Positions 18,477 through 28,300 of a DNA stretch of 64,000 nucleotides are shown one piece after another. The stretch's first letter is position 1. Each line of letters opens with the position of its first letter. The position numbers were made by a program, and so were the translations under genes. Source of the DNA: Trypanosoma brucei (taxonomy: Eukaryota); contig CH464491.1 of the NCBI GenBank assembly GCA_000002445.1, forward strand, positions 3,520,001-3,584,000, given 5' to 3'. Under the pieces are notes generated by a model that was not told the origin of the DNA, searched no databases, and worked only from the letters and a program-made list of their open reading frames with translations.

Positions 18477-19481
18477 TTATTCTGACCGCTGTTGTCTCTG
18501 TCGGTGTTCCCCATGCGGATGTTGATGCTGCCGTCGTTGTTGCTGCTGTTGCTGTGCCATTTGGTGCCTTAGCAGCGCCTCAACCATGTCCCTTTTGTCC
18601 CGGCACCGCTCTAAAGAGAGCCAATTAAGCCACATCAGGGTCCGGAGGTTGCGCACTGTCATGGCTTCCAGCTCCTCACGTGTTCGAAGGACTTTTGCAT
18701 CGGCGATTACACCCTCCTCCTCTCTCGGCACCCTACGGCTCGAATCACTTCCACGTTTGTTCTCAGCAAGTCTCAGGAAAGAGACATTTTCAGGATTTGC
18801 CCTTTCAGCCGCTGGAGATATGGAGTGGATGGGCTGACGTACCGAGGGGACAAATGCCCTTGGTACTAGCACGCGCGCAAAACGCGCAGCCCTATTAATA
18901 TACGCCGGTATTTTTTTAAGGCCTGCTTCCGGGAACTCTGCCTCGAGCGAGTCGCGGAATGCCTTTGTGAAATGATTGCAATTACGTCTCAGCATGTGGT
19001 ACTTACTTGCCTCCCACTCAGGGCGTAGCTTTCCCACTATAGCAAGAATTTGTCGTATACTTGTGCCTCGAGGTAGATACCCAAGCAACTTACTCTTTTC
19101 AAACAGATACTTTGGGAGCATTTCTCTTGGCCTACCACAAGTGATACCACAGACCCCAGGTATAGGACGTGTTGAGCCGCTGAATGCCCATTCCGTGGAG
19201 AAAATTTCCATACCGGTGTGATAAATGCCCAGACCAATACGTGCATTTAGATTGTATGTGGTTTTGTCCACCTTGTTCTGCAGATTGTAAATATTCAAAA
19301 ACACAGGTACACCCATGCCCACGCTTCTACATCGGCCCTCGTCCTCTGACGTTTCCGGGCTGCTTTGCTCACTTGATAGTTGACCACGCTTCGACTCTGC
19401 TGGGGGGCATTGCTGTTTCAGTCTAGTCGATTTGCTGTCCTTTAAACTCTTGCTAGAAGGCCTGCAACAGCCTCCGCCCAT
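18477..19481 (-). CDS. PPPDE/DeSI-family (DUF862) cysteine peptidase (deSUMOylating isopeptidase-like) with an N-terminal MGGGCC dual-acylation consensus and a C-terminal extension
   Basis: Motifs YHTGMEIFSTEWAFSG ... NCNHFTKAF (His and Cys catalytic dyad context of PPPDE). The track's first codon is GTG; ATG at 19479-19481 gives MGGGCCRPSS. Confidence 0.7.
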   Translation of the reverse strand: MGGGCCRPSSKSLKDSKSTRLKQQCPPAESKRGQLSSEQSSPETSEDEGRCRSVGMGVPVFLNIYNLQNKVDKTTYNLNARIGLGIYHTGMEIFSTEWAFSGSTRPIPGVCGITCGRPREMLPKYLFEKSKLLGYLPRGTSIRQILAIVGKLRPEWEASKYHMLRRNCNHFTKAFRDSLEAEFPEAGLKKIPAYINRAARFARVLVPRAFVPSVRQPIHSISPAAERANPENVSFLRLAENKRGSDSSRRVPREEEGVIADAKVLRTREELEAMTVRNLRTLMWLNWLSLERCRDKRDMVEALLRHQMAQQQQQQRRQHQHPHGEHRQRQQRSE

Positions 19482-20558
19482 CACCTACACCAGTGTGCAC
19501 AGCAAACAGGATGGGTTGCTAAGCTGGCGGTTGAGATTTTCAATGCTTCGTATAAATAGCTAAAGTTTTTGACGTCGTTTCACACTCAGTTGTCTTGACC
19601 CTTGCAGTGGGAGGGGCGGGGTGTAGAGTTGCGCAACTGGACTTCGCCACCGGTACTGCACCTGCTTGCCGTCAACACCGCCACCACAAGTCCTATACTC
19701 TTCCTGCCTCCGCTCGCCGTTCGCTTTTATGCGGGGAGGACAAGGGTAACTGTACGCAGAGCTGCCCAAAATACTCACCACAATAGCGGAGAGATGTGTA
19801 GATGAACCTATGAATAAATATGTAAAAGAAAAAAGCGTATGCTGCCTTTTGTAACGGAAAGAGGAACACGAAAACGGCGCCACACAAACCGATTTGGATG
19901 GGGAAGGAGGGTGGTCAACACGACGGACTTCGGTTACTATGAAGTTGGGAAAATAGTTCGTGAGTGGTGTCTTGGGAAACACAATGCCAGTCGTCGTCAA
20001 CATCATCCGTTCGCAGCATCGCCTCATGCCTGCATGCAAACGGGTAAACGCAACGGGAAAATGTCATCACATTCCAAGCCACTCTGTCCTTGTGAACACT
20101 ATGAAGGGGAAACCAGTCGGAACGAACAAAACAAACAAGCGATAAGGAATACTAACAACGGTAACAGAGGATGAACCACGGGCACAACCATCGTGCAAGC
20201 AACGTCCACCAATGAATGCAGCCACTACGGAAGCATACCCGCAAGTTTATTCGTGCACACAATTTCCCGTGGCGATATGCACGATGATCGGCGATTGACA
20301 TTCACACCCTACGTCTTTCATCCCCCCACGATGCCATCAATAGCTTCTCCGATTTTATCGTGTTAAGAGTTTCATCTTCATACCACAATTAAACAAGGGA
20401 TTATCAACAAACAAACGCGTACCGCTGCCGCCTCTACCCCTGCGAACACCATCGACGAAAATTTATACCCCGATACCTCACAACACGGGAGACCGTTTAA
20501 CGACGCGTTTTTCTTGCCACAGATTCCCTTCCTCGTTGTTTGTGCTACTCACCCACAC

Positions 20559-21509
20559 CTACCTCCATTCCTTCTGCCACCTATCTGTACGGCTTTTCAC
20601 ATACTCATAAACAACCATTGAAACCCCACTGATGGGTCCAGCGCGTAGGAGCGAGACGCCGAGACCGCGGTATATGACGAGCGGTGATTCTCTTCGTAGT
20701 AGCTCCACCACTGCCAGCGTTCCTACGCACCGGGCTTGTACAATTGTCTTGACTGTGTCCAGAGGATACAGAAGTGCCCATGTGACCATAGACGCCGTAC
20801 AGCCGGCTACAAATGTCCACTCAGTGGGCAACCGTTCCTCAATTCCGGGCGACTCGGTGCCAGTACTCGAAGTACACCAAGCACGGAGCCACCGCCTGTT
20901 TACATCATAGAAACCCAAGTAGCACCCAGCGAAACACGTATCCTTCAGGAGGTGGTAACCGAATCCATGAAAGTAACCCTTGATTCCCTCACTGCGGAAA
21001 ATATTCGCAGCACACACCCATGCGTTCCTGGTTGATCTCCGCGTGGAGTATTGTGTCCTAAGTTTTATGACGTGGAAGGGACAGCCAATAAACGTTCCCG
21101 CAGCACCGGCACACGCACCCGAGCGAAACGGTGACTCTCCCAGCCACGATGCTACCGACCTCAGCAGCTCATTGACATGTAAACTCCGGAAGGGATGAGA
21201 GGCCATGGGGGTGGAGTGAGTCGCTCGCGGCGGTTTGTTACAACTTCTCTCTGCACGAATCGAATCCCACAAGGCATATTGCAGGCTACGCTTCGTTGCC
21301 GACATGATAAGCGGTGGACCGGTACCACGGTACAAACTTCGCACACCTTCCTCGCGTGCGACGTCCAACATGGTCTTCCACGCCGAGCGGGCCGCCAACG
21401 GACCACACGCCTGCGCACGCGTCTTTGCACTGTCAAGAGGCTGACCCAGAACAACAGTTGTCATACCTTGCGCTGCACCAGGCAGAAACGTGAGTGCCCA
21501 ATCAATCAT
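20559..21509 (-). CDS. mitochondrial carrier family (SLC25) protein
   Basis: 316 aa, tripartite. Carrier signatures PLDSAKTRAQ and YPLDTVKTIVQ (P-x-[DE]-x-x-[KR]); six predicted helices. Confidence 0.7.
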   Translation of the reverse strand: MIDWALTFLPGAAQGMTTVVLGQPLDSAKTRAQACGPLAARSAWKTMLDVAREEGVRSLYRGTGPPLIMSATKRSLQYALWDSIRAERSCNKPPRATHSTPMASHPFRSLHVNELLRSVASWLGESPFRSGACAGAAGTFIGCPFHVIKLRTQYSTRRSTRNAWVCAANIFRSEGIKGYFHGFGYHLLKDTCFAGCYLGFYDVNRRWLRAWCTSSTGTESPGIEERLPTEWTFVAGCTASMVTWALLYPLDTVKTIVQARCVGTLAVVELLRRESPLVIYRGLGVSLLRAGPISGVSMVVYEYVKSRTDRWQKEWR

Positions 21510-26572: not shown

Positions 26573-26914
26573 GCCTGTTCTGTGCAAGGAAATGGACGCA
26601 AGAAAAAGGATTCAAGACGCACAAAAGCTATGAGAGGCAGACGTAGCATTTGCGAAGTAACAGTCGAAAAGAATGCAACCAACTGCCCTCAATTTAGATG
26701 GGAATAAGAGAGGATATAACTTTACAGACACCAGCCACCAAGACAAGAGTTGCGTATGAAGACATGCATACACCAGGGTCGCGGAGTTACCAAAGAGGGG
26801 ACCGCGGTCCGCGGTACTCCATTTATCTCACCCCTCCATACCGGCAGGAGGCGCAGTGGATCCTTTCTTGGTCCACGTTTTCCCAGACAACTCTTGACAG
26901 CCTCCAGCGCTTTC

Positions 26915-27538
26915 TCAAGGGGTCTCGTCATCGCTATCGTCTAGCACCACTACTTCTGCCATCTTCTGGTCTCCCTCGTCGTCGTCGTCGCTACTGCCGA
27001 TGACAATGACTTCCACCCCCGCCTTCCGGTTTGCTGACCCGAGACTTGGATGCTTTTTAACTTCATTCCGCTCCGTTTTCCCCCATTCAAATCCGTCAAG
27101 GGGACAGGTGACGTGCATTTTGTACTGCCGCTCAAAAAATCGTGCTTGGTCTAAGGCAGTAAAGTATGCCGACACCAGCTCTGCTTGCGGCACTTCCCCC
27201 GGGGGCAGAAGAACCAAAACCTCCCCATTCACGGTGGGATCACTCGAGACTATTCGCGTGGCAGTTCCACCGCCGTCGGTATCACTTGTTGCAACACACG
27301 ACAAACTGCGCACCTCGGCCCAGCGTTCCTCCGAGAGGCAAGCCTCAACAACATGACTGTTCGCCTTACAGCAGTCACTCCCCACCTGTGTGAAGGCAAT
27401 ATCTAATGCCACGCTCCGCAGTTCAGACTCGCTTGGACTATGTGGCGCCCCATGGTTTTTACTATCATACTTCTCTACCTTTTCCACCGACCCTTCGTCA
27501 GACGAACTCATCATCATCTCCAGGGGCACTGACGACAT
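26915..27538 (-). CDS. hypothetical acidic protein with two C-terminal SUMO-interaction-motif-like elements (VEVIVIGSSDDDDEG and VVVLDDSDDETP at the C-terminus)
   Basis: The upstream part of the track ORF looks like polyY/UTR translation. ATG at 27536-27538 (MSSVPLEMMMSSSDEG...). The SIM-like hydrophobic core plus acidic/Ser tail was read directly. Choice of start is uncertain. Confidence 0.35.
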   Translation of the reverse strand: MSSVPLEMMMSSSDEGSVEKVEKYDSKNHGAPHSPSESELRSVALDIAFTQVGSDCCKANSHVVEACLSEERWAEVRSLSCVATSDTDGGGTATRIVSSDPTVNGEVLVLLPPGEVPQAELVSAYFTALDQARFFERQYKMHVTCPLDGFEWGKTERNEVKKHPSLGSANRKAGVEVIVIGSSDDDDEGDQKMAEVVVLDDSDDETP

Positions 27539-28300
27539 GCGGAGGAGTTGTATAATGTAACGCACATGCACCGGCACACCACAACACCACACGAGTACAA
27601 AAACATGCCGCCGAATGTCAGGAATGAGCCACCCGGATACATTCAAAGCGAAGGATGTGGTGTTCTCGTCCATGTACAAAACCGCACCCCGCCTAATCGC
27701 ATCCACAACTGTGGCGCTGCAATATGTAAGAATATACTTATGTTTGCAGATATAAAGCAAAAGAAGGGGGGAAAACACTGGACCCCGGCAACACCTCCTT
27801 CCTTTCGCCGCTGGCCAACCAAACCTTGTGACTAAGGAAAAGAAGAGAGTGAAAAGTGGAGGCGATGGACAAATAGTTGGGATAAGTAGGTAACGCAATC
27901 ATTGCCCGCGGTTGGACGCAGTCTGAAGTAGTTCTGCAAGGCAGATTTGAGGGAAAGATGCGGCTATTTGTAATCATCCACAGCGCATGCCCTGTGGAGG
28001 TCCACAACATCGTTCTATCCACCTCCCTGCCATCTTGTGCACGGTGAATATTCTACATAAATTTACGTAGCACAACACAGTAAAGATGTCTTCGTGTATT
28101 TTCGGAGGGGGAAAAAAAAGAGATTACGCGCACACGCAACCATCCGAATAAAAATGAGAGAAGCACAGGTGACATGTCTGAGGGAGACAGACTGTAGTGC
28201 CACCAACATGCAGGTTTCATGTTCTCCCTCTGGCCGTGAAGACGCCGAAGCGAATACCCGCACCTGCGTGTGATGGCGCTTTCCTTTGAATATTCTTGCA

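Follow-up and report, generated by a model that had tools for sequence, protein, structure and literature searches.

Two PPPDE-family peptidases and a protein with SUMO-interaction-like motifs in a conserved gene block of Trypanosoma brucei chromosome 11

Do two peptidase genes and a nearby gene for a protein with motifs of the kind that bind SUMO, all encoded on one strand of a Trypanosoma brucei chromosome, form a functional module, or do they act separately? The question is raised by a stretch of 64,000 nucleotides of T. brucei TREU927 chromosome 11 (GenBank assembly GCA_000002445.1, contig CH464491.1, positions 3,520,001 to 3,584,000 of the forward strand; hereafter the window), within which all coordinates are given unless another assembly is named. 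It encodes two peptidases of the PPPDE family (genes A and B) and a trypanosomatid-specific protein (gene C) that carries two candidate SUMO-interaction motifs (SIMs) in its C-terminal tail. SUMO is essential in T. brucei and has links with transcription from VSG expression sites and with differentiation from slender to stumpy forms. To our knowledge SENP is the only SUMO protease that has been studied in the parasite, and work on its SUMO readers is almost absent. A preliminary description of the locus had called the two peptidases deSUMOylase-like and had judged the proximity of B and C worth testing as a hint that their products work together, with the caution that gene order by itself is weak evidence. 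Taken whole, the evidence is best explained, in our judgement with moderate confidence, by three separately acting genes that sit in one conserved trypanosomatid synteny block. Every one of the three had already been annotated or predicted, and the preliminary description mostly repeats existing annotation; its one new idea, that co-location means co-function, is unsupported.

All genes of at least 180 amino acids in the window lie on the minus strand, which places the window in the interior of one polycistronic unit of chromosome 11; the genes and protein features of the window located below are likewise on the minus strand. In an exact-sequence look-up of six proteins of the region, five found a match, all in T. 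brucei and four of them with TREU927 accessions, and the model of C as first described, starting at 27538, found no exact database match.

Two peptidases of the PPPDE/C97 family

Gene A (18477..19481, including the stop codon) encodes a protein of 334 amino acids that is identical to EAN80286/XP_829398, and gene B (25862..26572, including the stop codon) one of 236 amino acids identical to EAN80291. Both carry the database name 'PPPDE domain-containing protein' (T. brucei TREU927), and by gene order they are probably Tb927.11.13420 and Tb927.11.13470, respectively. Searches against Pfam PF05903 (Peptidase_C97), which the preliminary description had proposed as a check, put both well above the 29.2-bit cut-off (83 bits and E 2.6e-23 for A; 101.3 bits and E 5.8e-29 for B). 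With these scores, an intact catalytic dyad and an alignment to the mouse DeSI-1 structure 2wp7, the assignment of both genes to the PPPDE/DUF862 family is borne out.

The catalytic domain of A spans amino acids 59-203 (18873..19307, Pfam envelope) and the PPPDE core of B amino acids 45-157 (26102..26440, from Pfam, the family alignment and 2wp7). We aligned 18 PPPDE sequences, including plant and other non-kinetoplastid members, and the catalytic His and Cys columns are invariant in all 18. In A these residues are His88 (19218..19220) and Cys168 (18978..18980); in B they are His69 (26366..26368) and Cys145 (26138..26140). A family profile built from this alignment matches the PDB entries 2wp7 (E 1e-10) and 3ebq (E 1e-9), and the profile was required, as PDB searches with the single sequences of A and B returned no match. 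The profile alignment lays HHTG/YHTG over the catalytic His (GIWHTS) of mouse DeSI-1 and NCN over its catalytic Cys (HNCN), residues that we take to be His38 and Cys108. The catalytic role of DeSI-1 Cys108 is confirmed in a recent preprint (10.64898/2026.09.16.752001). The signatures first quoted for the two genes hold at these catalytic positions but not letter for letter: in B the motif is HHTGVE, where YHTGVE had been quoted, and the corresponding sequences of A, WAFSG and RNCNHF, depart from the stated F[SA]FG and N[CN]CN. Both proteins are predicted to have the permuted papain fold, and since both keep the catalytic dyad, both are probably active.

How are the two genes related? A and B are identical at 31% of positions over 121 amino acids, and at 26% over 158 columns of the core. 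A neighbour-joining tree of the core recovers the A-type proteins and the Trypanosoma B-type proteins as two clades with 100% support each, and the protein from Bodo saltans groups with B, not with A, at 84% bootstrap. Because the Bodo saltans protein joins B, the split between A and B is older than the trypanosomatid radiation and older than the parting of Bodo from the trypanosomatids. In T. cruzi and T. vivax both genes have stayed in synteny, at corresponding positions. A recent tandem duplication is rejected by the low identity and the tree placement, in agreement with the view already taken in the preliminary description that the paralogs are very divergent. Alignment and tree together therefore identify A and B as ancient PPPDE/C97 paralogs whose catalytic dyad is intact.

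Outside the core the two proteins carry different additions. A begins with MGGGCC (19464..19481), a consensus candidate for N-myristoylation at Gly2 and palmitoylation at Cys5/6. Orthologues of A start with Met-Gly in three of three species (MGGGCC(R), MGLCDSK and MGNNIST). Position 6 holds a small residue and a Cys lies nearby, the classical layout of a predicted N-myristoylation and palmitoylation site. The gene A product is thus probably anchored to membrane by lipid, to judge from its consensus N-terminus, and PPPDE proteins find no mention in the supplements of the L. donovani myristoylome. Towards the C-terminus, amino acids 267-307 of A (18561..18683) resemble a SAP-like domain of the RNF34/RFFL type (PF23632; cut-off 27 bits). 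T. brucei A scores 23.2 bits when the full protein is searched and 25.9 bits when a fragment is, the T. vivax orthologue exceeds the cut-off at 32.1 bits, and the T. cruzi orthologue reaches 13.4 bits; ARMET_C matches in the same region are weak. The enzyme would most likely work at the membrane, N-myristoylated and palmitoylated at its MGGGCC start and with the SAP-like module at its other end. T. brucei A ends in a low-complexity tail rich in Gln, His and Arg (MAQQQQQQRRQHQHPHGEHRQRQQRSE, 18477..18560), which the T. cruzi and T. vivax orthologues do not have.

B is probably a small, soluble enzyme. Its main peculiarity is an insertion of about 45 amino acids (..VYDNGEREVV..), followed by a conserved MPSWVNRLA helix (together 25928..26101). 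In the alignment the insertion is found in the B-type proteins of Trypanosoma and Bodo; it is present neither in A nor in two non-kinetoplastid PPPDE proteins. Every Trypanosoma species found has an orthologue of B, as does Bodo. In Leptomonas pyrrhocoris, two tandem B-type PPPDE genes lie past the C orthologue (L004:11814..12542 and 13411..14085), both with HNCI in place of NNCN around the catalytic Cys, and the second of these copies is a lineage-specific tandem duplicate.

What would such enzymes cleave? As papain-like Cys-His hydrolases, A and B would strip a modifier from a protein; the bond that they cut would be an isopeptide one, to ubiquitin or another protein of that kind, or else a thioester. 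In PMC6759571, mouse DeSI-1 (Shin 2012) and Arabidopsis DeSI3a (Orosa 2018) are described as removing SUMO from particular substrates, and DeSI3a as a membrane-bound PPPDE enzyme that deSUMOylates FLS2 and has a narrow substrate set. A 2026 survey (PMC13015453) reports deSUMOylases, deubiquitinases and S-depalmitoylases within the PPPDE family; in it DESI2 is a deubiquitinase, the PPPDE-type protein CLN5 is an S-depalmitoylase, and PPPDE-type enzymes show Cys-palmitoyl thioesterase activity. Moreover, activated human DeSI1 labels with the vinyl sulfone (VS) probe ubiquitin-VS and not with SUMO1-VS, the vinyl methyl ester probe SUMO2-VME or NEDD8-VS, and it leaves SUMO2 chains uncleaved while K48 chains are released en bloc (preprint 10.64898/2026.09.16.752001). 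Literature searches found no studies of any trypanosomatid PPPDE protein.

Given this literature, the equation of DeSI with deSUMOylase is no longer acceptable as a default. The modifier that A or B removes, be it SUMO, ubiquitin or an acyl group, is not decidable from sequence, and we drop the term deSUMOylase-like, which cannot be read from sequence in a family that also holds deubiquitinases and thioesterases and in which human DeSI1 was labelled by a ubiquitin probe and by no SUMO probe. It may be that neither enzyme has anything to do with SUMO: A and B would then be deubiquitinases, or A an S-depalmitoylase or thioesterase anchored in a membrane, a reading to which we give a little under an even chance. 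The probe profile of human DeSI1 and its en bloc release of K48 chains speak for it, as do the activities of DESI2 and CLN5, the acyl-anchor motif of A, and a weak LRAT-family match around the catalytic Cys of the T. vivax A orthologue (E 0.023). Against these stand the removal of SUMO by mouse DeSI-1 and by DeSI3a, the latter membrane-bound as A is predicted to be (both from PMC6759571), and the sequences of A and B themselves, which do not discriminate between the activities.

Gene C: gene model, folded domain and SIM-like tail

Gene C is Tb927.11.13480 (Tb11.01.5080), a trypanosomatid-specific gene that encodes 252 amino acids (26915..27673, including the stop codon). Its identity comes from the TrypTag C-terminal tagging primer of Tb927.11.13480, which is identical in sequence to the final 80 coding bases of the open reading frame (ORF) that ends at 26918. 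The preliminary description had given C as ORF 26915..27538, which is truncated at the N-terminus, and the position 27898 at which it ended its region is only that of a maximal TTG-initiated ORF. A start at 27673 (MDENTT...) provides 45 more N-terminal residues than a start at 27538. We take 27673 as the true start because conservation in the protein is highest in these added residues, and because they are modelled at a predicted local distance difference test (pLDDT) score above 90 and fit the published numbering of a SIM at amino acids 241-247. The T. b. gambiense model of C also has 252 amino acids.

The family to which C belongs is small and narrowly distributed. A single-sequence search found matches in T. 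brucei and T. congolense only; after widening with syntenic ORFs from T. vivax and T. cruzi, a profile search reached all Trypanosoma species and Leptomonas, and a HMMER scan of 1.84 billion representative proteins gave just 20 matches, of which the named ones belong to Leishmania (LINJ_09_1371, LMJF_09_1315), Leptomonas, Novymonas and Strigomonas. Two very divergent members come from Logan assemblies (L007:3862..6243, 793 amino acids; L008:1041..1889, 282 amino acids), and both keep the C-terminal SIM-like motif. Every member has the N-terminal motif W..D[IV]..H.F.LVW.CG.P.H.RY..LL and a common mid-region (EVLAL, AY.TA..QA), the tail being unalignable apart from the SIM-like motifs; no Pfam domain was found in any of them.

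From an AlphaFold2 (AF2) model and the conserved columns, C has a folded N-terminal domain (amino acids 1-187, 27113..27673), modelled as four short helices, a long helix, three strands and a second long helix. The model used was built from 22 sequences and has a pLDDT of 80 and a predicted template modelling score of 0.70, with pLDDT above 90 over amino acids 10-59 and 80-187; an earlier model from 12 sequences was poor (pLDDT 54) and its Foldseek search gave only noise. Amino acids 10-187 form the compact domain, and the tail (amino acids 190-252) is predicted to be disordered, at pLDDT 45-58. A candidate transmembrane segment near the N-terminus (VLVWCCGVPVHVRYIIQLL, Kyte-Doolittle 1.63) was rejected, as it contains conserved His, Arg and Tyr residues and falls within the compact helical domain of the model.

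This layout, a small N-terminal domain with a long charged tail that ends in a short binding motif, resembles that of POLD3. C might accordingly be read as the trypanosomatid POLD3/Pol32/Cdc27, with a winged-helix-type N-terminal domain that docks on POLD2, a charged disordered tail, and SIMs in place of the box that binds PCNA (the PIP box), a reading that we rate as highly improbable. Foldseek with the C model gave no match, hhalign of C against the N-termini of human and yeast POLD3 (sequences verified in PDB) gave a probability of 0.1%, and Pfam CDC27 found no match in C even at E 10. The PIP box Qxx[ILM]xx[FY][FY] and the Pol-alpha-interacting motif are each present in 0 of 22 C-family members. 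With no sequence or profile similarity found, no Foldseek match, and neither PIP box nor Pol-alpha motif, C is not to be filed as a POLD3 member, and we give very little credence indeed to the idea that it fills the vacant place of third subunit in the trypanosomatid DNA polymerase delta/zeta, with tandem SIMs replacing the PIP box. Were the POLD3 reading true, SUMO would recruit the polymerase, perhaps by way of SUMOylated PCNA or fork proteins, in place of the contact between PIP box and PCNA.

The two acidic-hydrophobic sequences with which the preliminary description had C end are indeed present: motif 1, VEVIVIGSSDDDDEG, at amino acids 220-234 (26972..27016), and motif 2, EVVVLDDSDDETP, at the extreme C-terminus, amino acids 240-252 (26918..26956). 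They read VIVI-GSSDDDD and VVVL-DDSDDE. Both fit the general SIM pattern, a core of [VIL][VIL]x[VIL] or [VIL]x[VIL][VIL] with an acidic/Ser cluster beside it. We defined a strict SIM as a Val/Ile/Leu core next to a stretch with at least five D, E or S in six residues. The 29 minus-strand ORFs of the window hold three such matches, two of them in C, compared with 0.49 matches and 0.015 proteins with two matches per set of shuffled ORFs. Across the family, a strict motif occurs within the last 80 residues in 20 of the 22 proteins (0.9 expected from shuffled tails), and nine of 22 have two (0.0 expected); for single proteins, shuffled tails of equal composition yield the motif in 1-16% of trials. 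Motif 1 appears in orthologues of C as DVILIDSDDD or ETVIVDAEDE, and in the Leishmaniinae and several other relatives the protein terminates on the motif (..VIVIDSDDE*). The third strict match in the window, in reversed layout (SVDDEDLVLVTV), lies near the C-terminus of a 310-amino-acid protein without a Pfam domain (4513..5457).

The prediction of a SIM in Tb927.11.13480 has been published: the gene is among 102 SIM candidates in S1 Table of PMC5825156, with a single SIM-a, VVvLDDS, at amino acids 241-247. What is new here is the conservation across the family and the additional motif. Motif 2 fits the published SIM-a pattern, and motif 1 was missed by it because T. brucei has a Gly after the core. 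In the same work, TbSUMO K27 chains were shown to bind the tandem SIMs of RNF4 in vitro (Iribarren et al. 2018, PMC5825156). The SIM layout first noticed for C is thus upheld by the strict motif in 20 of 22 members, by its place in a region predicted to be disordered, and by the independent prediction of motif 2.

If C is a SUMO reader, the Val/Ile core of each motif would add a beta-strand to SUMO, and the Ser/Asp/Glu flank, which fits the casein-kinase-2 consensus, would pair with the basic patch of SUMO. Given two motifs spaced by about 20 residues, C would most likely read SUMO chains or multi-SUMOylated partners, non-covalently.

The same residues could instead be generic acidic-hydrophobic patches that bind a histone-type basic partner or act as phospho-regulated degrons, in which case C would not be a SUMO reader; we consider this rather unlikely, although a real alternative. 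The tail is acidic overall (42 D+E against 22 K+R), and the best PDB sequence matches of a tail profile, the SIM of the SAE2/UBA2 C-tail (DDVLIVDSDEEDSS) and a PML SIM peptide, come at E ~0.1 and are not significant. However, the exact SIM layout, three to four Val/Ile followed by D/S/E, is kept in those 20 members amid changing surroundings, and shuffled tails produce it at the low rates already given. Its extreme C-terminal position also recalls Daxx, whose C-terminal SIM is IIVLSDSD.

Immediately beyond motif 2, T. brucei differs from its relatives. All other Trypanosoma orthologues of C run past this motif with P[AV]KRRRK..S...YE[VL]VE. When the DNA is aligned to that of T. congolense and T. 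vivax, a 1-nt deletion is seen directly before the TGA of T. brucei C, and the lost tail remains legible in the +1 frame as LRKRWRLSRVVWENVDQ (26866..26918, from translation and DNA alignment). By this alignment T. brucei C has lost, through a 1-nt deletion, its only cluster that resembles a nuclear localisation signal, and it ends a few residues past the SIM, as the Leishmaniinae proteins do.

Gene order and the proposed SUMO module

Does the proximity of B and C mean that they act together? C sits next to B in each of the trypanosomatid loci examined, which are those of T. congolense, T. vivax, T. cruzi, Leptomonas and the two divergent assemblies L007 and L008. A gene with a PFR domain before C and a Kelch gene after B are found in every locus long enough to show them: L007 and L008 both keep the order C-PPPDE-Kelch, and L007 also has the PFR-domain gene before C. 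Since the PFR-C-B-Kelch block is conserved whole, the conservation of the C-B adjacency does not stand out from that of the gene order around it. The Bodo orthologue of B, moreover, has unrelated neighbours, and it is well established that the polycistronic units of trypanosomatids bring together genes of unrelated function. Conservation of the whole block, the different neighbours in Bodo and the polycistronic background together point to inherited order, and the adjacency lends no support to a functional link.

A SUMO-handling module made of B and C, possibly with A, in which C recruits poly-SUMOylated substrates and a PPPDE enzyme removes the SUMO, is therefore very unlikely. It could appeal to an adjacency that holds even in the two most divergent loci, and to the deSUMOylase activity reported for PPPDE enzymes of mouse and Arabidopsis in PMC6759571. 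The same conservation extends to the flanking PFR and Kelch genes in the same order, however, in genomes whose polycistronic units are not grouped by function; the orthologue in Bodo sits among other genes; and the SUMO specificity of PPPDE enzymes is itself contested. The suggestion that co-location reflects shared function finds no support in these observations, and the place of B next to C would be a matter of inherited gene order, with no functional unit implied.

The explanation that we prefer, three genes that act separately, with C as the predicted SUMO reader, has points that weigh against it. PPPDE specificity is contested in the literature. Motif 1 of T. brucei, with its Gly after the core, fails the published SIM-a pattern, and hydrophobic plus acidic stretches may serve binding to histones or other basic partners or be acidic patches regulated by casein kinase 2. 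S1 Table of PMC5825156 lists no domain and a NucPred score of 0.03 for Tb927.11.13480, and together with the lost KRRRK this means that C may sit away from most SUMO conjugates. Finally, a literature search found the gene identifiers of A, B and C, old or new, absent from the main text of papers, and their UniProt accessions cited in none.

Elsewhere in the window, a 275-amino-acid protein encoded between both peptidase genes (21911..22738) has two internal CxxC-x29-CPxC repeats, WKCGLCGYY...MSCPRCMLLHHDWE and YYCDKCNRE...IVCPGCKEEHSEW, which look like zinc ribbons; it has no Pfam match despite this appearance. The window also encodes a bromodomain protein and the thymine dioxygenase JBP1 (56002..58530), with Tet_JBP and DB_JBP1 domains, which serves as a landmark for locating the window on chromosome 11. 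Between a DnaJ-domain gene and JBP1, over 52001..56000, the GC content drops to 0.43-0.45 and the GC skew to -0.16 and -0.20, and no listed ORF of at least 180 amino acids lies between 52107 and 55283.

Significance and comparison with known systems

Three things at this locus are of value: a trypanosomatid-wide protein with a SIM-like tail, a PPPDE enzyme that has a SAP-like domain and a probable lipid anchor, and a clean 1-nt truncation in T. brucei. Tb927.11.13480 is the most useful lead because its motif is kept across trypanosomatids and sits on a domain without a clear relative. The specificity of A and B, for its part, would feed the current dispute over the activity of PPPDE/DeSI enzymes.

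The motifs of C share with the Daxx C-terminal SIM, the RNF4 array, the SAE2/UBA2 C-tail and the PML phospho-SIM a core of three to four Val/Ile followed by Ser/Asp/Glu. As in known SIM proteins, the predicted SIMs of C are disordered, lie at or near the extreme C-terminus and come in two copies. Beyond the motif, C has no homology to Daxx, RNF4, SAE2 or PML, and it has no RING domain, Daxx helical bundle or Pfam domain.

For A, two likenesses stand out. About 40 C-terminal residues of A and its orthologues resemble the profile of the SAP domain of RNF34 and RFFL (CARP1/2; PF23632), with a score above the cut-off in T. vivax and just below it in T. brucei. RNF34 and RFFL carry FYVE-like and RING domains, whose place in A is taken by the peptidase. 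Arabidopsis DeSI3a is, like A as predicted from its MGGGCC start, a PPPDE enzyme at the cell membrane; no RNF34-type SAP domain is described for DeSI3a in PMC6759571, whereas A has a SAP-like one, and a receptor-kinase substrate of the FLS2 type has no known counterpart in trypanosomes.

The closest known relatives of both peptidases remain DeSI-1 and DeSI-2 (PPPDE2 and PPPDE1; MEROPS C97; 2WP7 and 3EBQ). A and B lie far above the profile threshold of this family, their His and Cys correspond to it residue for residue, and both have, further downstream, the [IM]P.[WY][IV]NR.A helix that is also seen in the plant and the remaining non-kinetoplastid members of the alignment. Core identity to mouse DeSI-1 is just 22-27%, and each trypanosome enzyme adds elements that DeSI-1 and DeSI-2 do not have: A its predicted N-terminal acylation motif, a low-complexity leader of 58 amino acids and the C-terminal SAP-like domain, and B the insertion of about 45 amino acids that it has in common with Bodo.

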